NCBI GenBank assembly: GCA_007135125.1
Contig: SLJK01000032.1
Location: 16,237 to 80,236, forward strand
Direction: 5' to 3'
Length of the DNA: 64,000 nucleotides
Source: Syntrophomonadaceae bacterium
Lineage (GTDB): Bacteria > Bacillota > Dethiobacteria > DTU022 > UBA8154
Each line of letters begins with the position of its first letter. Positions within the stretch are counted from its first letter, which is position 1. Below the pieces are notes generated by a model that saw nothing but the letters and a program-made list of their open reading frames with translations, did not search any database and was not told the origin of the DNA. A program made the position numbers and the translations under genes. Positions 1-50,123 of the stretch are shown piece by piece.

Positions 1-159
1 GCTCTCGATCCTGACTCCAATAAGCTAATTACTTCGCGGATCTTGATCGATGCTACCACGCCCTACGAATGGGAAAACAAGCCCCAAGAAGTAGCCATGG
101 ACAGTGAGACCATGGAGAAAGTTCACTCTCGCTGGAAAGAGTACGGTTTTGACTTTTAA
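1..159 (+). CDS. UbiD-family (de)carboxylase, C-terminal fragment (5' truncated by window edge)
   Basis: Frame 1 reads ALDPDSNKLITSRILIDATTPYEWENKPQEVAMDSETMEKVHSRWKEYGFDF*. The W-x-KYGF C-terminal motif parallels the C-terminus of the complete UbiD paralog at 2937-4370 (…LANWEKYGFTK). Confidence 0.55.
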   Translation, partial: ALDPDSNKLITSRILIDATTPYEWENKPQEVAMDSETMEKVHSRWKEYGFDF

Positions 160-229
160 CGTCTTTCAGCATATTGTGTTAAAAGCCACTTATCCCCAAA
201 AAATGTTATATGAAAGGAGTTAACATCCA

Positions 230-772
230 ATGATGCAAAAAAATGTTGCTCAAGCTGTGGAGAAAGCAAAAAAAATTAAGCTTGTTGTTTTCGATGTCCA
301 TGGAGTATTAACTGATAATACGGTTATTTACGATGATGAAGGGAGGCGCTTACGGGCTTTTTGCCATGAGGATGGTTTTGGTTGTAATGCGCTGATGCTT
401 ATGGGTGTCGAGGTGGCCGTAATCACCAGGAAGTCAAAATCAGTAGCCGCCAGGATGGAAGATATCGGGATTAAACGGTTTTACCAAACCAAGGAAAAGA
501 TTGTCCAGTATGAACAACTACTAGAAGAACTTGGCATAACTGATGAAGAAGTTTGTTATGTGGGTGATGAAATTATTGATATCGGGGTAATGAAAAGAGT
601 TGGGTTTGCCGTAGCTCCTTCCGATGCAAAAACAATGGCTATGGATGTGGCGCACTGGGTTACCGAAAAAGCGGGGGGGAAAGGTGTAGCGAGAGAACTT
701 GCAGAGTTTATCCTGGAAGCACAGGGTAAATGGGGGACTTTCTGTGAAAAGGTAATGAGTAAAGGCTGGTAA
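230..772 (+). CDS. HAD-IIIA phosphatase, KdsC/YrbI-like (candidate PpcD-like phosphatase subunit)
   Basis: 180 aa. LVVFDVHGVLTD (DxDGV-type motif I), VITRKSK, YVGDEIID and GGKGVARE match KDO-8-P phosphatase-family motifs. RBS GAAAGGAG upstream. Confidence 0.8.
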   Translation: MMQKNVAQAVEKAKKIKLVVFDVHGVLTDNTVIYDDEGRRLRAFCHEDGFGCNALMLMGVEVAVITRKSKSVAARMEDIGIKRFYQTKEKIVQYEQLLEELGITDEEVCYVGDEIIDIGVMKRVGFAVAPSDAKTMAMDVAHWVTEKAGGKGVARELAEFILEAQGKWGTFCEKVMSKGW

Positions 773-912
773 CAATTCCCTTTTATGTAGGATAGTGTTT
801 AGGGTAAAATGTTAATTCTTGGAAGGGATTTTTATTTTATTGTCTTATAATACGATTAGTACAATGTGTTTTGGTTCTGGCTGGGGCCAGTTAGAAAAGG
901 GGCTAGTAGCTT

Positions 913-2856
913 ATGGATAAAAACAATCTCTCCTTTCCGTTTTTCGAACAGTCCTCCTCAGAGGACAACTGGTACGGGCAGGATCTGAACAGAGAAACGG
1001 AAAAACATAATAGTCAGTTACTTGCTTCGGGAGAGTCGAGAAGAGAGCTTCTTAAAGAACGTAAAAGGGTGATTCAGTGGAGGATATTAAATGAAGCCAC
1101 TGCCATCTTAAATTCTCAGCTGCACTCGGAAAGCCTTCCCCTTAAATTTATTAAATGTGCAAAGAAATTAGTCTCTGCCGGAGAGGCGCTCTTGGCTTTA
1201 AAAGAAGAAAAAGATGCGAGTCTGACTATTATTAAACATTACTCCACTACCGAGGGTTCTGGGGAAAAGCTGGTTGAAGAAAAATCCCAAAACCCTCAGG
1301 GTGCCATCAAGATTATTATGGAAAACGAAGAAGTTATTAATAGGAACTCATCGCAATTTCCTTCTCATGAACTTTACGGTTTTTATTCCATAAAAAAGAG
1401 TCTTCTGGGGATCCCGATCTATGCAAGCGGGAAAGTTATAGGTGCCCTTTTGATGGCCAACAAATGGGAAGAGGATTCTTTTACCCGTGACGACCAGGAG
1501 CTGCTGCTAATTTTAGGTGCCCAGCTGGGTATAGCCCTGGAAAACTCCAGGCTTTATGAAAAAACTGATGAGAAGCTGCAGGCAAAAGTGGAAGAGTTGG
1601 AACAGGTTAACGACCTTCTGACAAAAAAACATAAAGTGCTGGCTAAATCTTTGGAAATTCACAAGCAGTTAACCGATTTAGCTCTGCGAGGGGAGGGAAT
1701 AGAAGCTATCTGTAACACCCTGGTCTCCATTATTGGTTCACCAATTCAGGTTGAAGATTGTGCCTTTAATATTAAGGCAACGACCATGGAGCACTTAACC
1801 GGGGATTTTCTTAGTGGCAGGAACCTGGTAGATGGTTGTGGATATGAGCGACACTCAAATGAGCTTTTTAAAGGAAGAAAAGCGGTGGAAATTACCCTGG
1901 ATTCTAACACTACTCAATATATGGTCCCTATTATTGCAGGTCAGCAAGTCCTGGGGATCATAACCACGGTTTATGCAGATAGGTCTCTTGGCCAGCTAGA
2001 TAGGGTGGCTATGGAACAGGGAGCAACCATTATTGCCCTGGAAATGCTGAAGGAAAAAGCTGCCGTGGAGCAAACTCGACGCTTGCGGGAACACTTTTTG
2101 GAGCAGGTGCTGGAAAAAGATTATGAAAGCGAAGAGTGGGTGCATCATCGTGCTCTGCAGCTGGGATTTAATTTGAAGCATGCCTGCCAGGTGATGACAG
2201 TGGAGATCGAGCCCGGCCCAAAAGACAGGAGCCGGCCTGAACTATACCAGGAAATAAGGGAGTTCTATATAGACTCTACTACCAATGTTATTGTTATTAT
2301 CAAACATAATAGGGCCATAGTAATGCTCTCTTTCGACCCCCTGGAAGAGAAAGACGGGGTCAAACACCTTGCCGAATTGTTAAAGAAGTGGCTGGAGCAG
2401 TCGGTACAGGACGGCACCTGGTGGATTGCCCTGGGTACTATTTGCTATCAATTAGAAGACTGCGCTATTTCCTACCGAAAGGCAATTACAACTCTTGACA
2501 TTATGAAGGCTTTAAGGCTTACCCAAAAAATAGTTTCCAACGATAACCTGGGGATCTTTTCATTGATCGAAATTAACACCCAAAACTTTGCAGAATTCAC
2601 GCAAAGAACCCTGGGAGAGCTGTTGGATTATGATCAGAAGCATAAAACGCAGCTGGTGAGCACTTTAAACCTGTACTATAGACATAATGCTAATGTCCTG
2701 AAAGCATCCCGCCAGGGCTACCTGAATCCCAGCACCATGAAATACAGGTTGCGGAGAATACAGGAGATCACTGGTTTGGACTTAAAAGATGCCGATGTAG
2801 GCTTGCAGCTGCAGTTTGCTCTGAAATTAATGGAATTTGTTTGGTCAGATAGTTGA
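913..2856 (+). CDS. GAF-domain / PucR (CdaR)-family transcriptional regulator
   Basis: 647 aa. Central GAF-like block (…GIPIYASGKVIGALLMANKWEED…LGIALENSRLYE), a coiled-coil, and a C-terminal PucR-type HTH (…STMKYRLRRIQEITGLDL…). Confidence 0.7.
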   Translation: MDKNNLSFPFFEQSSSEDNWYGQDLNRETEKHNSQLLASGESRRELLKERKRVIQWRILNEATAILNSQLHSESLPLKFIKCAKKLVSAGEALLALKEEKDASLTIIKHYSTTEGSGEKLVEEKSQNPQGAIKIIMENEEVINRNSSQFPSHELYGFYSIKKSLLGIPIYASGKVIGALLMANKWEEDSFTRDDQELLLILGAQLGIALENSRLYEKTDEKLQAKVEELEQVNDLLTKKHKVLAKSLEIHKQLTDLALRGEGIEAICNTLVSIIGSPIQVEDCAFNIKATTMEHLTGDFLSGRNLVDGCGYERHSNELFKGRKAVEITLDSNTTQYMVPIIAGQQVLGIITTVYADRSLGQLDRVAMEQGATIIALEMLKEKAAVEQTRRLREHFLEQVLEKDYESEEWVHHRALQLGFNLKHACQVMTVEIEPGPKDRSRPELYQEIREFYIDSTTNVIVIIKHNRAIVMLSFDPLEEKDGVKHLAELLKKWLEQSVQDGTWWIALGTICYQLEDCAISYRKAITTLDIMKALRLTQKIVSNDNLGIFSLIEINTQNFAEFTQRTLGELLDYDQKHKTQLVSTLNLYYRHNANVLKASRQGYLNPSTMKYRLRRIQEITGLDLKDADVGLQLQFALKLMEFVWSDS

Positions 2857-2936
2857 ACATGTGCTGTGCTTCATTTGGAAGAAGGTAGTTAGAGGTATTA
2901 AGTTGAAATTAAAATATAAAGGAGGCTGTGCAAAAG

Positions 2937-4370
2937 GTGTATAAAGACAACCGAGAATTTATGAAAGCGCTGGAGGCTGCAGGAGAACTGGTTACCATTG
3001 ATCAGGAAGTGGACTGGGACATGGAAGCGGGAGCAATAGTCCGCAAGGTTTGTGAAGACAAGGCACCTTCTCCCCTGATGAACAAAATCAAGGATTACCC
3101 CGGGCATCGATACCTGGGAGCGCCCCTGGCAAACTACCGCAAGTTGGCCATAGCTATGGGCATGGATCCGGATAGCAGTATCCCTGAGATTGCTGCAGAA
3201 TACTTGGAGCGCACCAACAGAGAACCGGTAAAACCTGTTATTGTTGAAAAAGATCAGGCACCTTGCAAGGAAAATATTATTACAGGCGATGATGTTGACC
3301 TTTTTACTCTGCCTGCTCCCATGGTCCATGAAGGTGATGGGGGACGGTACCTGGCAACCTGGCATTTTGTGGTAACCAAGGACCCTGACAAGCAGGAAGT
3401 TAACTGGGGAATGTACAGGCAGATGGTTTATAATTCCAAAATAATGACCGGACCGCTATTTCCTTTTTCCGGTGGTGGCCAGGTTTTCCACGGGAAATAT
3501 GTTCCCCGCGGTGAGGCTATGCCTTTTGCTACTGTGATTGGCCCGGATCCCCTTGGTGCTATTGCGGGTTCCGCCCCCACAGCTATCCCTGAGCCGGAAT
3601 ATACGGGGCAGCTTTTGGGGAAACCTGTGGAACTGGTGAAATGTGAAACAGTGGATTTGGAAGTCCCCGCCAATGCCGAAATAATTATTGAGGGGTATAT
3701 TCTTCCTGATGTATCGATAGAGGAGGGACCTTTCGGTGAGTACACTGGTTACCGTACTTCTCCGAGAGATACTCGCACGGTTTACCAGGTAACTGCCATC
3801 ACCCATAGAAATGATCCCATAACCACCATTTCCAATATGGGTGTTCCCACCGACGAGGGGCAGCTTTTGCGTTCTTTCACCCTGGGTTTGGAAATGGATA
3901 GGATGCTTCGCAACCAGGGTATCCCTATAACGGGAGTGTATATGCTGCCCGAATCGACTCACCACCTGGTTGTAGTTGGAGTTAAGCCGCTTTATACTAA
4001 TATAGCGGCACAAATTGCTCAAACTGTTTTTGGTAGTTCGCTGGGTATGTGGTTCCATATGGTTGTGGTAGTAGATGATAAAACAGATATTTATAATTTC
4101 AACGAAGTTTTGCATGCCCTAAGTACTCGCTGTCATCCTGTAAACGGCATACATGTCTGGCAGGGAGTGGGGACACCCCTCTATCCTTTCCTCAGCGCGG
4201 CGGAAAGGAAGAAATCAGTAGGCCCTAAAGTTCTCTTTGACTGCACCTTCCCGTTGGACTGGGATCCATTAAGCGAGGTGCCCAGACTTGTTTCTTTCAA
4301 GACAGTTTATCCCCAGGAGATCCAGGACAAGGTTCTGGCCAACTGGGAAAAATATGGCTTTACAAAATAG
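2937..4370 (+). CDS. UbiD-family prFMN-dependent (de)carboxylase (phenylphosphate carboxylase alpha/beta-like)
   Basis: The ORF track starts at GTG 2928. GTG 2937 has better AGGAGG spacing and gives MYKDNREF…, typical of a UbiD N-terminus. About 478 aa, with UbiD-like blocks throughout (…GPFGEYTGYR…, …WHFVVTKD…). Confidence 0.8.
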   Translation: MYKDNREFMKALEAAGELVTIDQEVDWDMEAGAIVRKVCEDKAPSPLMNKIKDYPGHRYLGAPLANYRKLAIAMGMDPDSSIPEIAAEYLERTNREPVKPVIVEKDQAPCKENIITGDDVDLFTLPAPMVHEGDGGRYLATWHFVVTKDPDKQEVNWGMYRQMVYNSKIMTGPLFPFSGGGQVFHGKYVPRGEAMPFATVIGPDPLGAIAGSAPTAIPEPEYTGQLLGKPVELVKCETVDLEVPANAEIIIEGYILPDVSIEEGPFGEYTGYRTSPRDTRTVYQVTAITHRNDPITTISNMGVPTDEGQLLRSFTLGLEMDRMLRNQGIPITGVYMLPESTHHLVVVGVKPLYTNIAAQIAQTVFGSSLGMWFHMVVVVDDKTDIYNFNEVLHALSTRCHPVNGIHVWQGVGTPLYPFLSAAERKKSVGPKVLFDCTFPLDWDPLSEVPRLVSFKTVYPQEIQDKVLANWEKYGFTK

Positions 4371-4386
4371 TAAAGGAGGAAATATA

Positions 4387-4641
4387 ATGGCTCGCTATGA
4401 TGTTTTTATAAACAGCTTGGCAGATCTGCCTGAAGGAAAAGAGGTTCAACTTGCGATAAGGGATCTTTCGCCGGGAATTCATAAGTACTGCTATCAGGAT
4501 GTACTGGCCATGGTCTCTCCTGACCCCGAGAAATATGATGAAAAAATGCAGGTTCGTTATGGCAGGGGACAGGCACATCCACAACTATTCTCTATCAAAA
4601 TACAGGAGAATGTTGAAAGGATTCCGGAGCGATGGAGGTAG
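4387..4641 (+). CDS. small (85 aa) protein translationally coupled between two UbiD paralogs (candidate PpcC-like small subunit)
   Basis: The ORF track lists 4288-4641. The plausible start is ATG 4387, directly after the upstream stop and with RBS AAAGGAGGAAATATA. MARYDVFINSLADLPEGKEVQLAIRDL… The 3' end overlaps the next UbiD start by 10 nt. Confidence 0.5.
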   Translation: MARYDVFINSLADLPEGKEVQLAIRDLSPGIHKYCYQDVLAMVSPDPEKYDEKMQVRYGRGQAHPQLFSIKIQENVERIPERWR

Positions 4642-5999
4642 ACTTAAGAAGTTTTCTTCATACTTTAAAAGAAAATAAAGAACTTATAGAACTTGAGGAC
4701 GAAGTCAGCCCCCGTTACGAAGTTACTTCCATTTTCAAAGAGGTGCTGGGGGAGCAGGGAGGTCCGGCTGTCCTTTTGCACAATGTGAGCGGTTATCCCG
4801 GCCGGAAGTTGGCAGGGAACCTTTTGGCCAGCCGTGAAAAGATGGCTTTAGCCCTGGGGTGCCAGGTGGAAGATTTAAGGGACGCATATCTGAAAGGGCG
4901 CTTTGCTTCCCTGGAGCCTGTGCAGGTGCAAGGTAGTGCTCCGGCACAGGAAGAAACAGTGGCAGAAGAGATAGATCTTCTATCTCTTCTGCCCGCACCT
5001 ATTTTTCATCAGGGTGATGCCGGGCCTTACCTTACAGCAGGTGTGCTTTTGGCTAAAGATCCCGATACAGGGGTAATGAACAGTGGAATTCACAGGCTGC
5101 AACTAAAAGGCAAAACTAGGCTGGGGGTGTTTCTGGCTACACCGCCTCTGTCAAATTATTTCAAGAGATCTGAAGAAGAAGGTAAACCCCTGCAGGTGGC
5201 AGTAGCATTAGGTCTGCATCCAGCCGAGCTTTTAGCAGCAGCCGTTTCTCTTAAGGAGGGCATGAAAAGCAAGATTCATCTGGCCGGAGGTTTAGCCGGA
5301 CGAGGAATGCCGCTTACTCCAGCCAAAACCCTGGATATGATGGTGCCAGCCACGGCGGAAATTATCCTAGAGGGACATTTACTTCCTGGTATAAGAGAAG
5401 CAGAAGGACCTTTTGGAGAAAGTACCGGCTATTATTTTGAGGCGGAAAGCCCCATTTTGGAGATACAAGCGGTTACGTTTCGTAAGGATCCCATTCTTAC
5501 CGTTATTCCGCCCTGGGGAATCGAAACGGATATTATACTTGCAGTTTTTAGCGGAGCTGAACTGTGGAAGGAGCTGCACAGGGTTATTCCTGAAGTAAGA
5601 GATGTTACTTTTTTACCGGGCTCCCTCACTTTTCAGGGAGTTATCCAGGTGAGTGAATCACTTTCCAGGGAAAAAATAAGGCAACTGATTTACCTGGCTT
5701 TAAATTTGGATCGACGCCTGAAACACGTGATAGTGGTCGACGATGATGTGGATATTCATAGTTCTAGAGAGGTTTTATGGGCACTGGGGACTCGTTTTCA
5801 GGGCTCTACTGACCTCATTTGCCTCCCGGGCCTGGAAGGGTATGTTATTGATCCTTCCACCCAGGAAGGAGAAACAGCGAAACTTGGTTTTGATGCAACT
5901 GCACGACCGGAGGGGCCATATAGCAAGCGTTACCGGAGTCTTTCCCTTCCCCGGGAATCAATTTTAAAGGCAAAAAACATTCTGGAACAGAGGAGATGA
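4632..5999 (+). CDS. UbiD-family (de)carboxylase paralog
   Basis: 455 aa (MEVDLRSFLHTLKENKELIELEDEV…GPFGESTGYY…). Second complete UbiD paralog. Start overlaps the small ORF and the stop overlaps ubiX (ATGA). Confidence 0.8.
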   Translation: MEVDLRSFLHTLKENKELIELEDEVSPRYEVTSIFKEVLGEQGGPAVLLHNVSGYPGRKLAGNLLASREKMALALGCQVEDLRDAYLKGRFASLEPVQVQGSAPAQEETVAEEIDLLSLLPAPIFHQGDAGPYLTAGVLLAKDPDTGVMNSGIHRLQLKGKTRLGVFLATPPLSNYFKRSEEEGKPLQVAVALGLHPAELLAAAVSLKEGMKSKIHLAGGLAGRGMPLTPAKTLDMMVPATAEIILEGHLLPGIREAEGPFGESTGYYFEAESPILEIQAVTFRKDPILTVIPPWGIETDIILAVFSGAELWKELHRVIPEVRDVTFLPGSLTFQGVIQVSESLSREKIRQLIYLALNLDRRLKHVIVVDDDVDIHSSREVLWALGTRFQGSTDLICLPGLEGYVIDPSTQEGETAKLGFDATARPEGPYSKRYRSLSLPRESILKAKNILEQRR

Positions 6000-6610
6000 T
6001 GCCCGTGCGAATCGTAGTGGGTATATCCGGTGCGACTGGAGTGATCTACGGGATTAGGATCATGGAAATACTCAAGGAGCTTGAAGTGGAAACTCACCTG
6101 ATAATATCCGATGCAGGTAAGAAAAACATTGAGCTGGAAACCGGGTACGAAGTGGCCAGAGTTGAAGCGCTGGCGACAGAAGTTCATGATATATGTAACG
6201 TAGGTGCTTCTATTTCCAGTGGTTCTTTTAAAACCCATGGTATGATTGTTGCTCCCTGTTCTATCAAGAGCCTTTCTGCTATTGCTAATTCTTTCAATAA
6301 TAACCTGCTTATCAGGTCGGCAGATGTTACTTTAAAGGAAAAAAGAAAGCTGGTTATGATAGTAAGGGAGACGCCCTTGCACGTAGGTCATTTGCGGCTT
6401 ATGACAATGGTGGCGGAGGCAGGGGGAGTGCTGCTACCTCCAATGCCTGCTTTTTATAATCACCCTGAAACATTAGAAGATATGATTGACCAGACGGCGG
6501 GAAAAGCTCTGGACCAGTTCGGCATTGAGCATAACCTCTTTAACCGTTGGTACGGTACCGATTCGGCCAGAAGAAGAAACAAAGAAGCTTTAAAAAGGGG
6601 TTTGTTGTAA
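5996..6610 (+). CDS. ubiX: flavin prenyltransferase UbiX (prFMN synthase)
   Basis: 204 aa. IVVGISGATGVIYGIRIMEIL…MIVAPCSIKSLSAIANSF…RETPL is a classic UbiX/Pad1 flavoprotein. The start may be ATG 5999. Confidence 0.85.
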   Translation: MMPVRIVVGISGATGVIYGIRIMEILKELEVETHLIISDAGKKNIELETGYEVARVEALATEVHDICNVGASISSGSFKTHGMIVAPCSIKSLSAIANSFNNNLLIRSADVTLKEKRKLVMIVRETPLHVGHLRLMTMVAEAGGVLLPPMPAFYNHPETLEDMIDQTAGKALDQFGIEHNLFNRWYGTDSARRRNKEALKRGLL

Positions 6611-6614
6611 ACTC

Positions 6615-7139
6615 ATGGAAGAAATTATCGAAAGCAAGGAAATCTTTAACGGAAAAATTATCCGTGTCCGCCTGGATAAAGTAAGACTTCCCGATGGAAA
6701 GGAAAGTCAAAGGGAAATTGTGCAGCTCGGCGGCGCTGTAGCTATGGTGCCAGTTGATGAGAAAGGAAATATTTATTTCGTTAGACAATATAGAAAGCCC
6801 ATTGAAAAAGTTTTACTTGAAATACCGGCAGGGCGACTTGAACCGCCAGAAATTCCTGAGGATTGTGCTCGCCGGGAATTAGCAGAAGAGATCGGTTTGT
6901 GGCCGGATAAAATTAATAAACTTTCAGATTTCTTTTCCTCGCCTGGTTTTTCCAACGAGAATATCACTATATTTTTGGCCAGGAATTTGAGGAAGAGCAA
7001 AATGCGTCCGGATGAAGGAGAGTTTATTGATGTGGTATTATATCCTTTCTCTAAAGCATTAGCCATGATTAGTAGTGGAGAGATTCAGGACGGTAAAACA
7101 ATTGCGGGACTCCTGTTGGCCCATTATTTTCTGCAGTAG
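6615..7139 (+). CDS. NUDIX hydrolase (ADP-ribose pyrophosphatase NudF-like)
   Basis: 174 aa. Nudix box GRLEPPEIPEDCARRELAEEIGL (Gx5Ex7REUxEExGU). Confidence 0.8.
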   Translation: MEEIIESKEIFNGKIIRVRLDKVRLPDGKESQREIVQLGGAVAMVPVDEKGNIYFVRQYRKPIEKVLLEIPAGRLEPPEIPEDCARRELAEEIGLWPDKINKLSDFFSSPGFSNENITIFLARNLRKSKMRPDEGEFIDVVLYPFSKALAMISSGEIQDGKTIAGLLLAHYFLQ

Positions 7140-7212
7140 TAGTAATAGAAGAAGGTATTTTTCAATAGCGGTATCAGGTATATTTCAATATCTAAGAGTA
7201 AGAGGACTTTGG

Positions 7213-7250
7213 GGTATCTTTGTAGAATAGATACCTCACTTATTTTTTTA
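7213..7250 (+). terminator. rho-independent terminator after NUDIX gene
   Basis: Stem GGTATCT / AGATACC with a 9-nt loop, then a TATTTTTTTA U-tract. Confidence 0.5.
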
Positions 7251-7280
7251 TACCATATTTTATGGTAAGGGAGTGAACTT

Positions 7281-8384
7281 ATGGAAAAAATTTCGAAACG
7301 CCCCTGTTTAGATCAAATTACTCCTTATGTGCCCGGAAAACCTATTGAGGAGGTGGAAAGGGAGCTGGGGATAAAAGGAGTTATTAAATTAGCTTCCAAT
7401 GAAAATCCTCTTGGCCCTTCTTCTTTGGCTCAGGAGGCTATAAAGGAGTTTGCGCCTGAGGTAGGCATGTATCCTGATGGAAATTGCTTTTATTTAAAAG
7501 GAGAATTAGCCGATTATCTTGGGGTAACAGAAAAGAACATTGTTATGGGAAATGGAGCTGATGATCTTATCACCCTGGCCGGTCTTGCTTACTTGAACCC
7601 AGGGGATGAGATTATAATGGCGCAGCCCACTTTCTCACAATACGGATTTTCTGCCAGGCTTATGGATGCTATCCCGGTCAAAGTTCCGTCCCAGGATTTC
7701 CGTCATGACTTGAATGCTATAGCTGCAGCTATTACTGACAAGACGAAGATAATTTTTATCTGTAATCCCAACAATCCTACGGGCACCATTGTTACCAGGG
7801 AAGAGATGGAGACTTTCATTAAAAAGATCCCCACGAGTGTCCTGGTGGTTATTGACGAAGCATACTATGAATATGCCAGTGACCCTAAATATCCGCAGAG
7901 CATTGAGTTATTAAAAGAGGGTTATAATGTCTTTATCCTACGTACTTTTTCTAAGATATTCGGACTGGCTGGCTTGCGAGTAGGCTATGGATTGGCCCCG
8001 GAAAATGTTGTTACTGATATCAATACGGTTCGTGAACCTTTTAACGTAAATGCCATTGCCCAGTATGCTGCCAGGGCGGCGCTGAAAGACAAAAAACATG
8101 TCGAGGAAGGGCGCAGGATTAACGAGGAGGGCAAGATATACCTGGCAGAAGAATTTGAGCGCCTAAACCTTTTCCATCTTCCCACAGAAGCAAATTTTGT
8201 TTTTGTAGATGTAGGTGTGGATTCCCGCAAGCTTTTCCCGGTAATGTTGAAAAAAGGTGTTATTGTAAGAACAGGAGATATTTTTGGATATCCTGAGTTT
8301 ATCAGGTTAACTATTGGCACCCAGGAGCAAAATCGCCGTTTTATCAAAGCTTTTGAGGAGAGCATTAAAGAACTGCAAGGTTAG
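7281..8384 (+). CDS. hisC: histidinol-phosphate aminotransferase
   Basis: 367 aa. …LASNENPLGPS…, …FSKIFGLAGLRVGY… is PLP class-II aminotransferase and HisC-like throughout. RBS GGGAG. Confidence 0.85.
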   Translation: MEKISKRPCLDQITPYVPGKPIEEVERELGIKGVIKLASNENPLGPSSLAQEAIKEFAPEVGMYPDGNCFYLKGELADYLGVTEKNIVMGNGADDLITLAGLAYLNPGDEIIMAQPTFSQYGFSARLMDAIPVKVPSQDFRHDLNAIAAAITDKTKIIFICNPNNPTGTIVTREEMETFIKKIPTSVLVVIDEAYYEYASDPKYPQSIELLKEGYNVFILRTFSKIFGLAGLRVGYGLAPENVVTDINTVREPFNVNAIAQYAARAALKDKKHVEEGRRINEEGKIYLAEEFERLNLFHLPTEANFVFVDVGVDSRKLFPVMLKKGVIVRTGDIFGYPEFIRLTIGTQEQNRRFIKAFEESIKELQG

Positions 8385-23679: not shown

Positions 23680-24765
23680 TTATCCTTCATAATCGCCGTA
23701 TTCTTCTGAGAATCTTGCGTCCAGTTCACGTACGGTGTTAATAATTTCTTCGCCGTGCAGCCCCCTTGCTTCGGCGTCTCCGATCCAGTTTTCAACAATG
23801 GGTTCGATGCGTCCTCTCCATCGTTCTTCTTCGCCGGGGTCGAGTTCAAAAACTTCAATTCCATGTTCTTCGATACCAAACTCCAGTCCTCGTTCAGTAT
23901 GCTCTGTTCTCAGCTTACCATATTCGTACGCATATTCTTTGCTCATTTCCTCGATGGTTTCTTGAATATCCGTGGGAAGTGCATTCCAGGTCTCCAGATT
24001 CATCACTTTCATGAAAACGATGTTGTAGAGAAAGGGAGTTTTGGTGACATAGTCCAGGACTTCAGCCAACCTGAATCCTTTAAGAGTGTCAGTGGGAGCA
24101 AGAATGCCATCCAGTAGTGCAGAATCAAGTGCCAGATATGATTCGGACATGGGCATTGATACCGGTGTTACGCCAAGTGCCTGCATGGGTGCAACCGTTC
24201 CTCCTACAACCCTCATTTCTTTTTCTTCAATAGCTTCCAGGGTGTTGCCGGGCTCCTCCCTGGTCATAATGTCACCGGGACCTGTAGCCCAGAAAAAAAG
24301 CACCTTAACATCGTCATATTCGTCTATAAGCTCTTTCTCCTTCAATGTCTTATAACCCTCGTTCACAGTGAGGGAGGCCACCAGGGCGTTATCATTTTGA
24401 TAGCCGGGCAGCTCAAAGGCTTCGGTTACCGGGAATATTCCCGGTGTATAGGCCGGGCATGTTGTCCCGATATCTGCCGAGCCATCTACAACACCTTCAT
24501 AGATTTCAGTAGCTCCCAGGAGAGCTTCACCGGGCTGTATGGTTATTTTTACTTTTCCGTCGGTTCGCTCTTCCAGGTCCCTTGCCCATACCTCGTGTCC
24601 TTCAGTTACCTGGAAATCTGTCCCTGGCCAAAAAGTGGCAAATTGCAACTCAATTACTTCATCCGGATCGGTTGCCGGTGGCTCATCAGCAGCACAACCA
24701 GTGAAAACAGGCAAAGTTGACATTATTGCTGTGACTAGTATAAAACCAAGAAGCTTGCTTTTCAT
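23680..24765 (-). CDS. TRAP transporter substrate-binding protein (DctP family), lipoprotein
   Basis: Signal peptide plus lipobox (…VFTGC). The DctP-like fold is highly similar (~60% by eye) to the paralog at 26801-27940. Confidence 0.75.
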   Translation of the reverse strand: MKSKLLGFILVTAIMSTLPVFTGCAADEPPATDPDEVIELQFATFWPGTDFQVTEGHEVWARDLEERTDGKVKITIQPGEALLGATEIYEGVVDGSADIGTTCPAYTPGIFPVTEAFELPGYQNDNALVASLTVNEGYKTLKEKELIDEYDDVKVLFFWATGPGDIMTREEPGNTLEAIEEKEMRVVGGTVAPMQALGVTPVSMPMSESYLALDSALLDGILAPTDTLKGFRLAEVLDYVTKTPFLYNIVFMKVMNLETWNALPTDIQETIEEMSKEYAYEYGKLRTEHTERGLEFGIEEHGIEVFELDPGEEERWRGRIEPIVENWIGDAEARGLHGEEIINTVRELDARFSEEYGDYEG

Positions 24766-24831
24766 CCACTATACCCTCCTTGCAAGATCTTCAGCTAGGA
24801 TTGCTGAAAATACAATGTTTTTATGATTATT

Positions 24832-26139
24832 TTATATCCTTGCCATTTCAGGTAGAAAGAGTGCAATTTGCGGAAAAGCAAACAATAGTGCAATACACAC
24901 TACAATGGCAATAAGGAACGGCCAGGTACCTTTAAAAATCTCCATGACATCTATATCTCTGGCTACCCCCGCCACTACATATACATTAGCTCCTACCGGG
25001 GGTGTAATAACTCCCATGCCAAGTGCTAAAACGACAATAACCCCAAACCAAATAGGGTCATACCCCAGGGTAACAGCAACAGGGTAAAAGATAGGTGTGG
25101 TCATTAGAATAAGGGCCAGGGCATCGATGAAAAGCCCTAAAATAAGGTAAACCACTAAAACAAGAATCAGAACAAAAGTGGGAGAAAAGGGAGCTTCTAC
25201 AGCCATAGTAGCAACAAAGGCAGGGAGCCCGGTAATACCCAGGAAGCGTCCGTAAATAAAGGCAGCTCCCGTGAGAAAAAGGACCATGGCCGATAAGCGT
25301 ACCGCGTCAGCCGTTGAGCTGATAAAACCTTGCCAGGATAGTGTCCTTCGGACCAGCGATACTATAAGAGTTGCAAAAGCGCCTATACCTCCGGCTTCGG
25401 TAGGAGTAAAATATCCTAAAAATAGCCCACCCATTACGGCGATAAAAATTACAACAACTTCCATTCCTCCTGAAAAAAGTGCCTTAAGTTTATCAATTGA
25501 GGAAATTTTAGGTCCGGCAGGGGCGGCGGAAGGATCACGCAAAGCTATAAAATAAACCGTTAGCATGAATAAGAACATTAACAGGAGACCGGGGAAGATA
25601 CCGGCCAGAAAAAGCTGGGAGATGGAGGTCCCCGTTGAAACACCGTAAAGGATAAAAATGACGCTGGGAGGGATCATTACTCCAAGAATGGCTGCTGCGG
25701 CAATGGTGGCGGTAGAGAGAGTGCGTCTGTACTCAAACTTGGTCATTTCCGGGAGGGCCACGGCGGTCATGGTAGCAGCGGTAGCCGTGGTAGAGCCGCA
25801 GATAGCACCAAAAGCTGTACAGGCTGCTATGGTGGCCATGGACAAACCGGCCGGAAAGCCACCGATTACTTTATAAGTGGCATCATATATCCTACTGCTG
25901 AGCCCGGAGTAAAAAGCTATAAAACCCATCCACATAAAGAGAGGAACTACAATAAGCGAATAAGAAGCAAAATTGGAGTACATGGTCTGGGCCGAGATAG
26001 ACAGGGCAGCTGTAATATTAGTAAGGTAGGCATAGCCAGCCATTCCAATTACCAGCATTACAAAGGCGATTGGCAGGCGGAGAAAAAGCAGCACGAATAG
26101 AATTATTATGGAAATAAATGCTACATACAATGGATCCAT
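24832..26139 (-). CDS. TRAP transporter large permease DctM
   Basis: 435 aa, about 12 TM, with a typical DctM composition. Confidence 0.85.
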   Translation of the reverse strand: MDPLYVAFISIIILFVLLFLRLPIAFVMLVIGMAGYAYLTNITAALSISAQTMYSNFASYSLIVVPLFMWMGFIAFYSGLSSRIYDATYKVIGGFPAGLSMATIAACTAFGAICGSTTATAATMTAVALPEMTKFEYRRTLSTATIAAAAILGVMIPPSVIFILYGVSTGTSISQLFLAGIFPGLLLMFLFMLTVYFIALRDPSAAPAGPKISSIDKLKALFSGGMEVVVIFIAVMGGLFLGYFTPTEAGGIGAFATLIVSLVRRTLSWQGFISSTADAVRLSAMVLFLTGAAFIYGRFLGITGLPAFVATMAVEAPFSPTFVLILVLVVYLILGLFIDALALILMTTPIFYPVAVTLGYDPIWFGVIVVLALGMGVITPPVGANVYVVAGVARDIDVMEIFKGTWPFLIAIVVCIALLFAFPQIALFLPEMARI

Positions 26140-26633
26140 TATTGCTCACTCCCCTTTACAGCTAAATTAATTGCTTTAAGAAAATCTCTAAGCAGAACGA
26201 TGGCGAGAATAATAAAACCGATACCGACCAGAAAAATAATGGGGTAAATAGGAATCTGCAGATGACCGGTGTAATAACCTCTTTCCATCATCCTCAAGGC
26301 ATAAATAATTGTCCGCCAGGCTAATAAAGAGGAGAAAAAAACGGCTAAGAGCATGGTAAAGGTATCTATAATGCCCTGTACACGTAAAGGAAACTTCCTC
26401 ACCAGTACGCTCACGAAGATATGCCCTTTCATATGCTGGCAGTAAGCTACAGCCATACCGATGAGGACAGCTCCCAAAATTTCTGTCATTTCCACGGTGC
26501 CAGGAATGGGCCTCCAAAATGCGCGTATGATTACGTTGCCTGAAATGAGAAGCATTACCGCTACCAGTGCAATTTGGCTTATATGAGATATTTGCCAGGA
26601 AACAGTGCCCACAAATTTGTCCAAAAACCTCAT
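26139..26633 (-). CDS. TRAP transporter small permease DctQ
   Basis: 164 aa, 4 TM, immediately upstream of and overlapping dctM. Confidence 0.7.
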   Translation of the reverse strand: MRFLDKFVGTVSWQISHISQIALVAVMLLISGNVIIRAFWRPIPGTVEMTEILGAVLIGMAVAYCQHMKGHIFVSVLVRKFPLRVQGIIDTFTMLLAVFFSSLLAWRTIIYALRMMERGYYTGHLQIPIYPIIFLVGIGFIILAIVLLRDFLKAINLAVKGSEQ

Positions 26634-26800
26634 TTATTTCTGCCTCCTTGTAACATATGTATGGACAGCAAGAGTGTTTATAGAGAAGGCACCGCTGTCT
26701 CATGTCTTAAACTAAGACAGCAGATGCCTTCTCTTCAAGCTCTGGTTAAACAAGGAGCAGCAATTATTAATATATCAATTGCACTCTTGTTAGTTTAAAA

Positions 26801-27940
26801 TCAGTTAAAATAGTCGCCATACTCAGCAGAGTATTTTTCCTGGAGGTCCTTAACTGTTTGCAGGATTTCCTCGCCGGGCAGGCCTTGATCATTAAGACCC
26901 TCCACGTAGCCGTCCTGGACTGGCTCGATCGCTTCCATCCATCTTTCTACTTCATTAGCGTCGAGTTCGATTATTTCATGACCGAATTCATCCACGGCAA
27001 ATTCCTGACCAAACAATGTATGCTCGGTTCTTAGCACTCCATATTCATAGACGTACTTTTCGTTCACTTCGTCAAAAATCTGTTGTACTTCGGCGGGGAA
27101 AGAGTTCCATGTGTCCTGGTTCATGACTTTTATAAACGTAATGTTGTAGAGGAAAGGTGTCTTGGTGATGTAGTTGGTTACCTCGGCCAGCATAAATCCT
27201 TGAAGGGTATCGGTAGGGGCAAGGATTGCCTCCACGATTCCCTGGTCCAGGGCCAGGTATGATTCGGACATGGGCATGGTAGTGGGGGTTCCTCCCAGCG
27301 CCTCTATCACGGGGACCGAACCGCCGGCTGCCCTTGTTTCCATGCCCTGGTAATCGTCCAGCGTGTGGACAGGAGACTGCGAAATGATATCCCCGGGTCC
27401 CGTGCTCCAGAAATGCATGACCTTTACATCTTCATATTCCTGCGTAACCAGGTCATAAGTTTCAAAAGCATCCTGAATAACCATGGAGGAAACCAGGGCG
27501 TTGTCGTTAGGGAAGCCAGGGAGCTCAAAGGTTTCTGTGACAGGGAATACCCCCGGAGTGTAAGAAGGGCAGGTAGAGCCCAGATCGGCAGCTCCGTCGG
27601 CTACACCTTCATATATTTCCGTTGCTCCCAGCAAAGCGCCCGCGGGGTGCCAGTTGAAGTCGATGGTGTGGTTGGTTTCCGATTCTACACGATCTTTTAT
27701 CTCCTGTGCCCAGACTTGGTGTCCATCTGCAACCTGAAAGTCTTCACCAGGCCAGAAAGTAGCAAATTCCATGGTAAAATGTTCTCCTTCTGCATCAGGA
27801 TCTGCAGGCTCGGCAGGTTCATCCGGCTCATCTACGTCAGGATCCGGAGCGGGTGCAGGTTCATCAGGAGCACAACCCACAAATGCAAACATGGATACCA
27901 TCGCTATGGCTAATAACAGAATAAACAACTTTCTTTTCAT
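26801..27940 (-). CDS. TRAP transporter substrate-binding protein (DctP family) paralog, lipoprotein with P/D/E-rich linker
   Basis: Lipobox …FVGC, then APDEPAPAPDPDVDEPDEPAEPADPDAEGE linker, then a DctP fold. Confidence 0.75.
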   Translation of the reverse strand: MKRKLFILLLAIAMVSMFAFVGCAPDEPAPAPDPDVDEPDEPAEPADPDAEGEHFTMEFATFWPGEDFQVADGHQVWAQEIKDRVESETNHTIDFNWHPAGALLGATEIYEGVADGAADLGSTCPSYTPGVFPVTETFELPGFPNDNALVSSMVIQDAFETYDLVTQEYEDVKVMHFWSTGPGDIISQSPVHTLDDYQGMETRAAGGSVPVIEALGGTPTTMPMSESYLALDQGIVEAILAPTDTLQGFMLAEVTNYITKTPFLYNITFIKVMNQDTWNSFPAEVQQIFDEVNEKYVYEYGVLRTEHTLFGQEFAVDEFGHEIIELDANEVERWMEAIEPVQDGYVEGLNDQGLPGEEILQTVKDLQEKYSAEYGDYFN

Positions 27941-28442: not shown

Positions 28443-29210
28443 CTATACCGTCATTGAGCCTCCATCTACCATAATAGTTTCTCCTGTAATATAACTGGAT
28501 GCCTCCGAGGATAAAAATAATACCGGATGAACGATTTCAGACGGTTCGGCAATTCTGCCCAGGGGAATATTGTTGATTATATTATCGTAGTTTTCTTGGT
28601 TGGACCAGAAAGGTTTGCTGAAATGGGTTTTTACCATGGCCGGCGCCACAGCATTAACCTGGATATTATACGGAGCTAGTTCTGAGGCCAGCACTTTGGT
28701 AAGCATTTCTAAACCGGCTTTTGCTATACCGTAAATTCCCATTCCGGCAGAAGCTTTTCGTGATGCTATGGAAGAGATATTAATAATTTTGCCGCTTTGT
28801 TGTTCTTTCATGATCTCGGCAGCTTTTTTTGAACAGAGAAACGTTCCTCCCAGGTTTGTCTCTACGATTTTTTGCCACAGGGAATAGTCAGTTTCTAATG
28901 TAGATGGAGTAACCAGATTCATACCCACATTATTGACAAGGACGTCAAGACGTCCAAACTTTTCCAGGGTAGCCCTGAAAAGTTTGGCTACATCTTCTTC
29001 CCTGGCAATATGTGCGGTCATCGCCAGTACATTATCTTTATTGTCAAGGCCTTCCAGGACAGCCTCTATTCCTTCTTTCTTTCTGCCGCAGAAAGCCACC
29101 TTTGCTTTTTGTTCTAACAGCGTCTTTACCATCTCCAGGCCAATACCCCTGGTTCCCCCGGTTACTAAAAACACTTTATTTTCCAGGCCATACCAACAAT
29201 TAGAAGGCAT
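28443..29210 (-). CDS. short-chain dehydrogenase/reductase (FabG-like)
   Basis: TGGTRGIG Rossmann motif, NNVG, S…YxxxK (IYGIAKAG) catalytic motif. Confidence 0.8.
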   Translation of the reverse strand: MPSNCWYGLENKVFLVTGGTRGIGLEMVKTLLEQKAKVAFCGRKKEGIEAVLEGLDNKDNVLAMTAHIAREEDVAKLFRATLEKFGRLDVLVNNVGMNLVTPSTLETDYSLWQKIVETNLGGTFLCSKKAAEIMKEQQSGKIINISSIASRKASAGMGIYGIAKAGLEMLTKVLASELAPYNIQVNAVAPAMVKTHFSKPFWSNQENYDNIINNIPLGRIAEPSEIVHPVLFLSSEASSYITGETIMVDGGSMTV

Positions 29211-29403
29211 CCAAAACTCCTTTCGTTAACCGCATCTTCTCAAAACATTTTGTCTTTTTTATAAAGATTCTCTTAAGTAATAAAAATTCCTTCCCTTGCG
29301 AAAATATTTATAAGGGAAAATATGTCAAGGTTAACAAATATTTTTAGACACAAAAATTGAAACGATCCTTGTCGGGTTAGTTACATCCTTGGGCGAGTTA
29401 GGG

Positions 29404-29432
29404 TTGATTTTTTTACAAAAAAATAATATAAT
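29404..29432 (+). promoter_or_regulatory. sigma-A promoter for tRNA-Arg(CCT)
   Basis: TTGATT, a 17-nt spacer, then TATAAT, about 30 nt upstream of the tRNA 5' end. Confidence 0.4.
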
Positions 29433-29467
29433 ACCTGCAGCGTTGATAGGCTTCTTTACACAGGTGA

Positions 29468-29543
29468 GCACCTGTAGCTCAGGGGATAGAGCACCGGATT
29501 CCTAATCCGGGTGTCGGAGGTTCGATCCCTCCCAGGTGCACCA
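29468..29543 (+). tRNA. tRNA-Arg (anticodon CCT), CCA encoded
   Basis: 76-nt cloverleaf folded by hand: acceptor GCACCTG/CAGGTGC, anticodon stem CCGGA/TCCGG, loop TTCCTAA, T-loop TTCGATC. Confidence 0.8.
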
Positions 29544-29585
29544 TTTTTATGGCTAAACTTTTTTGCTTGGCAGCTAAATTAATAA

Positions 29586-29621
29586 AAGGATGCTTCCTAA
29601 GAAAGGAAGCATCCTTTTATT
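29586..29621. terminator. intrinsic terminator between tRNA and thiolase (bidirectional)
   Basis: 12-bp stem AAGGATGCTTCC / GGAAGCATCCTT, a 7-nt loop, flanked by A-run and T-run. Confidence 0.5.
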
Positions 29622-29681
29622 AAAAAGAGTTATTTTTCGAAAACCCGGTTAAATACAAATTGATTGTTTACTGCATAATGA

Positions 29682-30878: not shown

Positions 30879-30931
30879 TGAATGAAACCTCCTTGATAAT
30901 AATTCAACTACTCCCGAATTTAGTCGGTGGT

Positions 30932-30945
30932 AGTTTGATTTGCTG
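30932..30945. promoter_or_regulatory. perfect 14-bp palindrome GCTGCTTAAGCAGC (candidate operator) upstream of thiolase
   Basis: Self-complementary 14-mer 54-67 nt upstream of the thiolase start codon. Confidence 0.25.
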
Positions 30946-31282
30946 CTTAAGCAGCCCCAAATTATGCAACCGCAAAAATATCTAACCTCATACAAACAAA
31001 AAATGATACAGCTTATCCGCGCATGTTGTCCCCGCTATGGATTGTACACCTCCTTTTTGTGCATGATTGGAAAAAGTGATGCCGGTATCCGATAAACAGC
31101 TATTCAATGAATATTTCAACTTCCTCTTTGTATATTCGCCATAAATAATGCTTTCCCTGCCAGCTGCACTTCAAAAAGGTTTATCAATAATTAACGGTCT
31201 GCTACAAAAAAAATCAAAGATAAGAGGAATGGGGTCGACAGGTGCAGAAAAATAGATAAAGCAAAGAAAGGGGGATTGGTTA

Positions 31283-38850: not shown

Positions 38851-40431
38851 TCATAAGGAGCGGAGCTTGAAGCGCTGTATTTTGCCGGTGGTGCTTTTCG
38901 GCAATTCGGCAGCTATTTCGATCCAACGTGGATACTTGTACTTGGCCAGCCTTTCCAGAACCCAGTTTTTTAGCTCCTCCTCCAGATTTTCCACCCTCTC
39001 ATGACTTTCGCGGAGTACTACAAAGGCTTTCGGCTTTATCAGGTTGTTTTCGTCAGCTTGCCCTATTACAGCAGACTCAAAGACAGCTGGGTGACTGTTA
39101 AGGCAATTTTCAATTTCCACCGGAGATACCCAAATCCCGCCGACTTTTAACATATCGTCAGACCTTCCTGCACACCAGTAGTATCCATCTTCATCCACGT
39201 AAAATTTGTCTCCCGTATTTATCCATTCCCCCTGCATGGTTATGCGTGTTTTTTCGCGTTTACGCCAGTATTGCTGAGCTGCGCTGTCACCTTTAACCAG
39301 CAGTGTCCCTATTTCACCCTGGGGCACTTCGTCTCCCTGGTCATCTACCAACTTCAATTCATATCCCGGAACCGGTTTGCCGGTGGAACCTGGTTTTATT
39401 TCGCCGGGACGGTTGGAGAGGAAGATATGAAGCATTTCACTCGACCCCATGCCGTCTAAAATATCTATCCCAAAACGTTTTTTCCAGCGGTGGTAGAGAT
39501 CCTCCGGCAGCGCTTCCCCTGCTGATACACATATTCTTACAGAAGATAATTCGTGGTTTCCGTTAGGGTCAGGGGTTGTTCCTGTTTCCTGATCTTGATG
39601 TTCTTTATACTTCAACATCTGCCCATAAAGGGTGGGAACACCGAAAAACACCGTGGGGCGGTAATATTCCAGGTTTTTGAAAACATTTTCCGGTGAAGGG
39701 GGACGAGAGTCCAGGACGGCGGAAGCTCCTACAGAGAGAGGGAAGTACATACCATTTCCCAAACCGTAGGCAAAAAACAGCCTGGCCGGGGAATAGCAGA
39801 TATCTTCTTCAGTCAATTCCAGCACCTCTTTTGCATAATTATTAGAGGTAACGACCATGTCATACTGGGAATGAATGGCTCCTTTTGGAGGTCCTGTAGA
39901 ACCTGAGCTGTAAAGCCAGAAACCTACATCATCTTTAGTTGTGCGTGCGGTTTTGAGCATGGTAGGGGCCTGCCTGTACTTTTGCTTGAAAGGAATATGA
40001 GCCCCATTAATCTCCGAGATGACTATTAGATCACGCAAATAATATAATTCTCCCTTAATGTTTTGTACAACGGGCTGCATTTCATCAGAAATTACGAGTG
40101 CTCGCACACGGCTGTCGTTAAGATAATATTCGTAATCTTCAGGGGTGAGCATGGTGTTAACCGGTATGGGCACCGCCCCAATTTTAATAGCCCCCCAAAA
40201 TACTGCGTAAAATTGTGGAACATCCAGCATGATAATAAGTATTTTGTCGTCGATTCTCAGGCCGAGTTCCCTAAATCCATTGGCAGTCTTATTTGCCATT
40301 TTGTGGATATCATTATAAGAATAATTGCGGTGTGCCGTATAAACGGCGACTTTATGTCCCCGACCCTGCCTGATGTTACGATCCAAAAAATAGTCAGCGG
40401 CATTAAAAAATTCCTGTTCTACCCCATGCAC
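38851..40431 (-). CDS. aromatic acid-CoA ligase of the benzoate/4-hydroxybenzoate-CoA ligase (BadA/HbaA/BclA) family
   Basis: Block-by-block match recalled from BadA: FWLYSSGSTGPPKG, RLFFAYGLGNGMYFP, SSEMLHIFLSN, DMLKVGGIWVSP, LAKYKYPRWIEIAAELPKSTTGKIQRFKLR. Confidence 0.85.
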   Translation of the reverse strand: MHGVEQEFFNAADYFLDRNIRQGRGHKVAVYTAHRNYSYNDIHKMANKTANGFRELGLRIDDKILIIMLDVPQFYAVFWGAIKIGAVPIPVNTMLTPEDYEYYLNDSRVRALVISDEMQPVVQNIKGELYYLRDLIVISEINGAHIPFKQKYRQAPTMLKTARTTKDDVGFWLYSSGSTGPPKGAIHSQYDMVVTSNNYAKEVLELTEEDICYSPARLFFAYGLGNGMYFPLSVGASAVLDSRPPSPENVFKNLEYYRPTVFFGVPTLYGQMLKYKEHQDQETGTTPDPNGNHELSSVRICVSAGEALPEDLYHRWKKRFGIDILDGMGSSEMLHIFLSNRPGEIKPGSTGKPVPGYELKLVDDQGDEVPQGEIGTLLVKGDSAAQQYWRKREKTRITMQGEWINTGDKFYVDEDGYYWCAGRSDDMLKVGGIWVSPVEIENCLNSHPAVFESAVIGQADENNLIKPKAFVVLRESHERVENLEEELKNWVLERLAKYKYPRWIEIAAELPKSTTGKIQRFKLRSL

Positions 40432-50075: not shown

Positions 50076-50123
50076 TTTGCCCGGCAGAGATTGAAATGTA
50101 TGCAATAAGGGGAGGGACGTTAG

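Follow-up and report, generated by a model that had tools for sequence, protein, structure and literature searches.

Does the beginning of this 64,000-nucleotide stretch of DNA from a Syntrophomonadaceae bacterium (contig SLJK01000032.1; the whole stretch is hereafter called the window) encode a complete phenylphosphate carboxylase (Ppc)? A first-pass annotation, made from the letters alone, had proposed a four-subunit phenylphosphate-carboxylase system together with UbiX in a Gram-positive bacterium. This proposal is upheld by the cut-offs of profile hidden Markov models, by synteny, by the ppsAB genes found upstream, and by the relatives of the ProS protein encoded in the window. By sequence-level tests, the cluster is a member of the phenylphosphate carboxylase family, and the region very probably encodes the carboxylating half of an island for anaerobic phenol activation, its host being an uncultured bacterium of the class Dethiobacteria (Bacillota).

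Positions are those of the whole window, and genes were taken from the open reading frame (ORF) list and the direct translation of positions 1-7139. This segment contains eight co-directional genes, all on the + strand, and a ninth gene, discussed below, lies far downstream:

1..159, +: 3' end of ppcB (last 52 codons plus stop), beta subunit, UbiD family
230..772, +: ppcD, delta subunit, 180 residues, KdsC/YrbI-type HAD phosphatase
913..2856, +: GAF + GGDEF_2 + PucR-HTH regulator, 647 residues, between ppcD and ppcA
2937..4370, +: ppcA, alpha subunit, UbiD family, 477 residues
4387..4641, +: ppcC, gamma subunit, 84 residues, Phenyl_P_gamma
4632..5999, +: ppcX, third UbiD-family protein, 455 residues, not an orthologue of Ppc alpha or beta
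5996..6610, +: ppcY/ubiX, predicted flavin prenyltransferase making prenylated FMN (prFMN)
6615..7139, +: Nudix hydrolase, 174 residues, NudF/ADP-ribose-pyrophosphatase type, 4 nt after ubiX
38851..40431, -: benzoate-CoA ligase family gene (TIGR02262, 651 bits; cut-off, 375)

The ORFs of the first-pass annotation were found on the + strand at or near the positions it gave; its small ORF, however, has 84 codons rather than 85, and the Nudix gene had gone unmentioned. For ppcA, a GTG at 2937, 10 nt after AAGGAGG, is a better fit as the start than the GTG at 2928, and the public gene call likewise begins at 2937. The ppcC gene has its own ribosome-binding site (AAAGGAGG), and its 3' end overlaps the ppcX ATG by 10 nt, while ppcX and ubiX are joined by an ATGA overlap.

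Family membership of the carboxylase core was read from NCBIfam and Pfam models. PpcA scored 722.3 bits against TIGR02723, the equivalog model for the alpha subunit (cut-off, 564.6), is 64% identical to Aromatoleum anaerobium PpcA, and has close homologues (81% identity) that NCBI names phenylphosphate carboxylase subunit alpha. The 52-residue PpcB fragment matched a single NCBIfam model, TIGR02724 (phenyl_P_beta), at positions 422-472. It is 100% identical to the C terminus of a full-length PpcB (471 residues) on a near-identical contig, L086, described below; this protein passes TIGR02724 with 740.2 bits (cut-off, 468.95), and PpcB is 65% identical to its A. anaerobium counterpart. PpcC, 44% identical to A. 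anaerobium PpcC, passes PF09662 (Phenyl_P_gamma) with 86.8 bits against a gathering score of 25; this is its only match in Pfam, and the gamma model is its only match in NCBIfam.

The catalytic motifs of the UbiD family are in place as well. UbiD_N, UbiD, and UbiD_C domains were found in both complete paralogs, PpcA and PpcX. The UbiD paralogs of the window are mutually only 28-32% identical. In the alignment, R161 and E263-G-P-F-x-E268 do not vary among alpha, beta, and PpcX; alpha reads E-G-P-F-G-E. These residues match the catalytic E(D)RE motif of UbiD, which PMC8379154 describes in Fdc1 numbering. The conserved Arg/Glu motif and the linked ubiX fit a prFMN-dependent alpha-beta-gamma core, and Ppc itself may be a prFMN enzyme. 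A W-x-KYGF tail had been ascribed to all three paralogs; it holds for the beta fragment (WKEYGF) and alpha (WEKYGF) but not for the third protein, PpcX, which ends in ...ILEQRR and lacks a W-x-x-Y-G-F tail. Matches in the PDB sequences included no Ppc structure, and no exact window protein bears a name in any source covered by an exact-sequence cluster look-up.

Near-identical public contigs extend the locus beyond the edge of the window. Several public contigs from metagenomes or metagenome-assembled genomes (MAGs) encode alpha and delta proteins identical to those of the window. Two loci from a 102-kb ENA contig (L081 and L086) differ from the window by 16-17 mismatches over 10.8-14.4 kb (99.85% DNA identity), and these, with the matching loci L082 and L087 of NCBI assembly GCA_007126665.1, represent one population. 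Directly upstream of the window, L081 and L086 carry the full-length ppcB and then divergent ppsA and ppsB genes. PpsA has a PEP-utilisers domain, exceeds the cut-off of the PpsA-like model NF006152 (864 versus 723), and is 55% identical to the A. anaerobium protein; PpsB has a PPDK_N domain and is 42% identical to its counterpart. The nearest named relatives of the window ProS are from Dethiobacteria/Bacillota MAGs (71-77% identity), and the closest ppc loci are from Syntrophomonadaceae MAGs (isolates such as T1Sed10 and CSSed) and a Dethiobacter alkaliphilus MAG, so the assignment to a Gram-positive lineage is correct. The isolate names and the habitat of D. alkaliphilus (PMC5609068) suggest a soda-lake origin.

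The gene order is shared widely. In a comparative set of 80 loci, one genome per species, with ORFs called and labelled by BLASTP, the order ppsA-ppsB-ppsC-ppcB-ppcD-ppcA-ppcC-UbiD-UbiX recurs throughout Rhodocyclales, Aromatoleum included, and variants of it are found among Desulfobacterota, Chloroflexota, Actinomycetota, and Bacillota. The core ppcB-ppcD-ppcA-ppcC-ppcX-ppcY recurs across about 80 genomes, and the window is collinear with this canonical cluster except for the inserted regulator. Gamma is present here and in other PpcA-containing loci from anaerobes. The first-pass annotation had allowed that the small ORF and the phosphatase might show no co-conservation with UbiD genes; across the 80 loci, both are co-conserved with them. 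It had also called the third UbiD paralog unusual, but Aromatoleum and most other loci likewise have this gene, as PpcX, with PpcY/UbiX next in order; it is a canonical part of the cluster.

The comparative loci also revealed a gene of the UPF0261 family (PF06792/PF23189), at 6598-7797 of L005, 682-1899 of L006, and 2-1135 of L007, and also in L011, L012, L018, and L045. In Dethiobacter-type loci it lies immediately upstream of ppcB, and no ppsAB was seen there within 10 kb. The gene also stands beside pps/ppc in several Desulfobacterota loci. The UPF0261 protein may assist in phosphorylating phenol or stand in for a component of that step.

The delta subunit shows one of the lineage-specific features. 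Its best NCBIfam match is TIGR02726 (phenyl_P_delta) with 162.5 bits (model cut-off, 281.95); it is under the cut-off of the KdsC model NF007019 (157.6 versus 208), passes the broader YrbI subfamily model TIGR01670 (139 versus 107), and is 49% identical to A. anaerobium PpcD. Its slot between ppcB and ppcA is kept in nearly all of the 80 related loci. The nucleophile Asp22 is retained, and the Asp+2 position, that of the general acid/base, is His24 (F-D-V-H-G-V); on alignment with Escherichia coli KdsC (2r8e), LDVDGV corresponds to FDVHGV of PpcD. Among the 80 loci, delta subunits with D-[VI]-D were found in Betaproteobacteria, Rhodospirillales, and Chloroflexota, and those with D-[VI]-H in Bacillota, Desulfobacterota, an actinomycete, and a Kiloniellaceae MAG. 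The D-[VI]-H form also occurs in 117 of the 120 best database matches of delta, a clade that spans Bacillota, Desulfobacterota, Thermoleophilia, and others. We speculate that a His at Asp+2 might avoid protonating the phenolate leaving group, keeping it ready for carboxylation.

In the source databases, most of these delta homologues go by "HAD-IIIA family hydrolase", "HAD hydrolase family protein", or "KDO 8-P phosphatase"; the name "KdsC family phosphatase" is given to a few, and "phenylphosphate carboxylase subunit delta" appears a single time. Annotation thus probably under-recognizes the delta subunits of anaerobes, and under-annotation of the D-x-H clade may explain reports of "missing" delta subunits. 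Two tandem ppcD-like genes stand between ppcB and ppcA in L011, L015, L018, and L045 (Desulfobacterota and an unclassified MAG); the second copy has D-I-H-G, and the first is outside the motif pattern used.

The two remaining UbiD/UbiX-type genes differ in how closely they can be assigned. UbiX (PpcY) passes NF004685 (259.8 bits; cut-off, 188) and TIGR00421 (246.6; cut-off, 108.9) and is 64% identical to the A. anaerobium protein. PpcX passes only the generic UbiD model TIGR00148 in NCBIfam. In Aromatoleum and most loci, the place behind ppcC is likewise taken by a PpcX orthologue, and the Aromatoleum protein is 46% identical to that of the window. Around the Glu ligand, the alignment of the PpcX metal ligands is ambiguous. 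The closest solved structures to PpcX are 6h6v and 6h6x (274 bits), which we take to be Pelotomaculum HmfF. The furan specificity of HmfF is conferred by His H297 (PMC7976604); Thr aligns with this residue in PpcX, so HmfF function was not transferred, and identification of PpcX as an orthologue of this furandicarboxylate decarboxylase was set aside. PpcX has already been named in PMC5946492. It may be a decarboxylase, take part in handling the cofactor, or serve as an additional subunit.

Inside ppcX, at 4961-4993, two perfectly matched 15-bp arms form an inverted repeat around a loop of 3 nt (GGCAGAAGAGATAGA-TCT-TCTATCTCTTCTGCC). It spans the peptide AEEIDLLSLLP, and the 42-nt stretch around it folds at -26 kcal/mol. 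The repeat has one synonymous mismatch in the population variant L091 and is missing from the closest relatives, L002 and L003; it was not taken for a regulatory element.

From these assignments, the following route can be proposed. PpsA and PpsB would phosphorylate phenol with ATP to phenylphosphate, and PpcABCD would convert phenylphosphate and CO2 to 4-hydroxybenzoate and phosphate. The KdsC-like delta subunit would take the phosphoryl group on Asp22 and free phenolate, which the alpha-beta-gamma core, two UbiD-fold subunits plus the 84-residue gamma, would carboxylate with CO2 at the para position. UbiX would supply prFMN, the adjacent Nudix protein probably making dimethylallyl phosphate (DMAP) from dimethylallyl pyrophosphate (DMAPP), and PpcX would act as a conserved companion UbiD. 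The benzoate-CoA ligase family gene at 38851-40431 is a candidate for the CoA ligase of the next step, and its product is a possible 4-hydroxybenzoate-CoA ligase, loosely linked at about 32 kb. The sequences show the families, the set of subunits, the synteny, and the catalytic motifs; the substrate, the dependence of Ppc on prFMN, and the roles given here to the Nudix protein, PpcX, and the regulator are what we infer. The activity that defines Ppc depends on K+ and a divalent metal and includes exchange of 14CO2 by the alpha-beta-gamma core. The roles of the Thauera Ppc subunits, all four of which are needed for full activity, are summarized in PMC7500099.

Several observations weigh against this phenol-carboxylating assignment. 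The gamma subunit, at 92.5 bits, is under the equivalog cut-off of TIGR02725 (135.55), the delta subunit is likewise under that of TIGR02726, and delta is without the canonical second Asp of HAD motif I. No homologue of PpsC, a CBS-domain protein, was seen upstream. Among the window ORFs examined, only a subset of which was scanned with family models, neither a 4-hydroxybenzoyl-CoA reductase nor a benzoyl-CoA reductase could be recognized, which leaves the full downstream pathway unproven for this genome. Related Pps/Ppc-like enzymes act on aniline (PMC7500099), so that homology leaves the exact substrate unfixed.

This last point leads to the alternative that survives best, although we regard it as unlikely: the same architecture could serve another substrate, namely aniline via phenylphosphoamidate, catechol, hydroquinone, or a cresol. 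Desulfatiglans anilini uses Pps/Ppc-like proteins for aniline (PMC7500099), PpsB and PpcD are only 42% and 49% identical to their Aromatoleum counterparts, and the delta subunit falls in the distinct D-x-H clade. However, alpha and beta exceed equivalog cut-offs trained on phenylphosphate carboxylase, PpsA exceeds that of NF006152, and the D. anilini aniline system, as described in the same paper, uses only beta-type subunits, without alpha, gamma, or delta in its cluster, whereas the set described here is complete.

A second alternative concerns the direction of the reaction. The cluster could run from 4-hydroxybenzoate to phenol, or PpcX, UbiX, and an LpdD-like chaperone could form an independent, reversible hydroxyarylic-acid decarboxylase. 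The next-best specific model for PpcX is that of VdcC (NF041204), a gene of the LpdD family lies about 13 kb upstream on L086, and PMC5946492 speculates that PpcX and PpcY are 4-hydroxybenzoate decarboxylases. Yet PpcX scores 296 bits, far under the VdcC cut-off of 650, and alpha (253) and beta (274) do not pass either; no VdcD-type small subunit is present. The neighbouring, ATP-consuming PpsAB make sense only for carboxylation, and the fixed position of PpcX after ppcC across phyla argues that its role is tied to Ppc. We consider this alternative, in either form, very unlikely.

Direct carboxylation of an unactivated aromatic compound, as proposed for benzene or naphthalene (AbcAD), is extremely improbable. 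The first-pass annotation had noted a likeness to such clusters, which do occur in Gram-positive Peptococcaceae (PMC5852087) and, like the window, encode a protein of the UbiD superfamily with a small partner and UbiX; the likeness does not go beyond the superfamily. Both alpha and beta pass the equivalog cut-offs for Ppc. Next to the cluster stand genes for phenylphosphate synthase and, unlike in abcDA-bzlA, no benzoate-CoA ligase gene, and the cluster is collinear with the Aromatoleum phenol cluster. A role of UbiD and UbiX in menaquinone or ubiquinone biosynthesis is hardly credible, for although some sources auto-annotate homologues as "4-hydroxy-3-polyprenylbenzoate decarboxylase", all three paralogs are far under the cut-offs of PRK10922 (133-235 versus 788) and TIGR03701 (180-281 versus 495.9), and the genomic context is pps/ppc. 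Collectively, HMM cut-offs and context led us to reject the quinone-biosynthesis, VdcC-type, and benzene-carboxylase readings; the first-pass annotation had named placement in the quinone or vanillate-decarboxylase clades as refuting it, and the paralogs do not reach the cut-offs of either kind of model.

With the phenol-activating carboxylase as the preferred interpretation, the regulator inserted between ppcD and ppcA can be considered. It has N-terminal GAF domains, a GGDEF_2 domain (53.6 bits), and a C-terminal PucR HTH_30 domain (PF13556; 58.8 bits), which place it among the PucR/CdaR-family regulators, and its homologues adjoin ppc only in Bacillota loci: L001 (92% identity), L005 (65%), L017 (61%), and L010 (25%). 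The GAF-PucR protein is likely to be an effector-sensing activator; no paper linking PucR regulators with phenylphosphate metabolism was found in the searchable literature. In the ppsA-ppcB intergenic region of L086 (7955-8370), the palindrome TTAGCTAA occurs in three exact copies and one TTAGCTAT variant. For TTAGCTAA, 0.4 copies would be expected in L086, and none was found across the 64 kb of the window. Directly against the last copy in the intergenic region stands a TTGACA box (CCCCTAAATTAGCTATTGACA), and near-identical elements precede ppcB in L017 and UPF0261-ppcB in L005. The arrangement may serve as promoter and as operator of the GAF-PucR regulator. Within the window, scans of positions 1-7400 showed no enrichment of promoters (8 versus 11.5 in shuffles) or terminators (6 versus 8.2), and a search of the intergenic regions for shared 10-mers gave no convincing operator.

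The genes around ubiX and upstream of the window suggest how the cofactor might be provided. The window Nudix protein may be a DMAPP-to-DMAP phosphohydrolase feeding UbiX: E. coli NudB, NudF, NudI, and NudJ dephosphorylate DMAPP to DMAP, the UbiX substrate (PMC12359138, citing Wang et al. 2018), and a benzene culture of Peptococcaceae is described as having a UbiD-UbiX-NUDIX polycistronic transcript (PMC5852087). A plain housekeeping role for the window protein is conceivable too, since hisC and tsaEBD come after its gene. Upstream of window position 1, at 996-4254 of L086, are the LpdD-family gene, a type-2 isopentenyl diphosphate (IPP) isomerase (IDI-2; 340 versus 281 against TIGR02151), a fusion of a CTP-dependent riboflavin kinase with a HAD domain, and a 186-residue ORF with no match in Pfam, NCBIfam, or PDB. 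LpdD is a prFMNH2-binding chaperone (PMC10865409), and this block looks like a prFMN supply and maturation module. Together with the Nudix protein, IDI-2, riboflavin kinase, and LpdD suggest a dedicated prFMN supply line.

Comparable genes follow ubiX elsewhere. In Aromatoleum these are a CTP-dependent riboflavin kinase, a Zn-ribbon Nudix protein, and a PNPOx-like protein, and 27 ppc loci of Betaproteobacteria, that of Aromatoleum included, have such a Zn-ribbon Nudix gene downstream of ubiX. Among the 57 loci with enough flank, which are mostly related Betaproteobacteria and hence non-independent, a Nudix-box ORF was found within 2.5 kb downstream of ubiX in 28, and a riboflavin kinase was found within 2.5 kb in 47. 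The Aromatoleum Nudix protein shows no BLASTP similarity to that of the window (E = 2.1) and belongs to a different subfamily; non-orthologous Nudix genes after ubiX in Bacillota and Betaproteobacteria would imply independent recruitment. The only other Bacillota locus with the same Nudix gene is L017, where ubiX and Nudix are adjacent and followed by a 366-residue ORF, and this adjacency may reflect inherited synteny rather than independent evidence.

Three further observations were made on these accessory genes. In Dethiobacter (L005), the LpdD, IDI-2, kinase, and 186-residue set is clustered beside ppc with a PpcX-like UbiD gene, and the 186-residue ORF co-occurs with riboflavin kinase in the Desulfobacteraceae locus L015. 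In A. anaerobium (L074, 13740-15221), the kinase, Nudix, and PNPOx-like genes precede a PaaK-like ligase gene; the PNPOx-like protein (PF01243; 29.8 versus 28.1 bits) might help to handle flavin or prFMN.

Variant features of this cluster are the D-x-H delta, the PucR regulator inside the operon, and the arrangement for cofactor supply; the papers searched describe neither the first nor the island's possible self-sufficiency for prFMN. It is possible, and we put it forward as a tentative and somewhat doubtful proposal, that they define an anaerobe-type four-subunit Ppc with a His-containing delta, a self-sufficient prFMN island, and GAF-PucR control of the whole island.

Elsewhere in the window, two same-frame ORFs at 52137-54812 (+) are split by a single TGA (53172-53174) in the motif VDHCARL*HAPTVAGL. 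The TGA has the look of a selenocysteine codon in a gene for the alpha subunit of formate dehydrogenase, which would make one gene, not two. By eye, NuoE/NuoF-like genes precede it at 49578-52116, and an enoyl-CoA hydratase gene lies at 54930-55712. At 23680-27940 (-) and 28443-30995 (-) are genes for a TRAP transporter and two DctP-type binding proteins, beside SDR and thiolase genes. The TRAP, SDR, thiolase, and hydratase genes belong to generic acyl-CoA metabolism, and none was tied to an aromatic pathway.

These results extend the complete, Thauera-type four-subunit Ppc, gamma included, to uncultured Dethiobacteria of haloalkaline sediment. They suggest that soda-lake sediments, in which free CO2 is scarce, may be a site of phenol carboxylation. 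The co-location of ubiX with Nudix, IDI-2, riboflavin kinase, and LpdD-like genes also provides a parts list that could help reconstitution of Ppc with its presumed prFMN.

Of the known systems, the closest is the ppsABC-ppcBDAC-ppcX-ppcY cluster of Thauera aromatica and Aromatoleum, which has the same subunits in the same B-D-A-C order, then PpcX and PpcY, with Ppc subunits 44-65% identical to those of the window. In Aromatoleum, as here, alpha and beta share a W-x-x-Y-G-[FI] tail, and a Nudix gene and a CTP-dependent riboflavin kinase gene lie near ubiX. There are also differences. The pps genes of Thauera and Aromatoleum are co-directional with ppc, whereas the ppsAB genes of the window population are divergent and PpsC was not found. 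Motif I of delta is D-V-H-G here and D-V-D-G there, and a GAF-PucR gene sits between ppcD and ppcA here, whereas for Aromatoleum a one-component regulator, PheR, has been proposed (PMC10715001). The Nudix subfamily differs, and the riboflavin kinase of the window population, a HAD fusion, lies upstream with IDI-2 and the LpdD-like gene, unlike in Aromatoleum.

The strict-anaerobe type of Geobacter metallireducens and D. anilini shares the Pps and Ppc route via phenylphosphate and, to judge from the taxon of the window organism, its anaerobic lifestyle. Published work on strict anaerobes describes incomplete or scattered Ppc subunit sets: PMC7500099 reports that Geobacter and D. anilini are without a gamma gene and take alpha, beta, and delta from scattered loci, and that gamma was previously considered unique to Thauera. 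In contrast, all four subunits are contiguous in the window population, gamma included. AbcAD-BzlA of the Peptococcaceae culture BF resembles the window in its Gram-positive host, UbiD large subunit, small partner, and nearby UbiX (PMC5852087), but it has no pps and no KdsC-like phosphatase and carries a ligase gene in the cluster, and for the window the equivalog models and synteny indicate Ppc. Finally, VdcBCD, ShdBCD, and LpdBCD share with it a UbiD subunit with the E(D)RE motif, a UbiX-type B subunit, and small accessory proteins (PMC8379154, PMC10865409). Unlike the Zn-binding VdcD of the VdcBCD systems, however, the small ORF of the window is Phenyl_P_gamma, and carboxylation here, unlike in any of these three systems, would be driven by prior phosphorylation.

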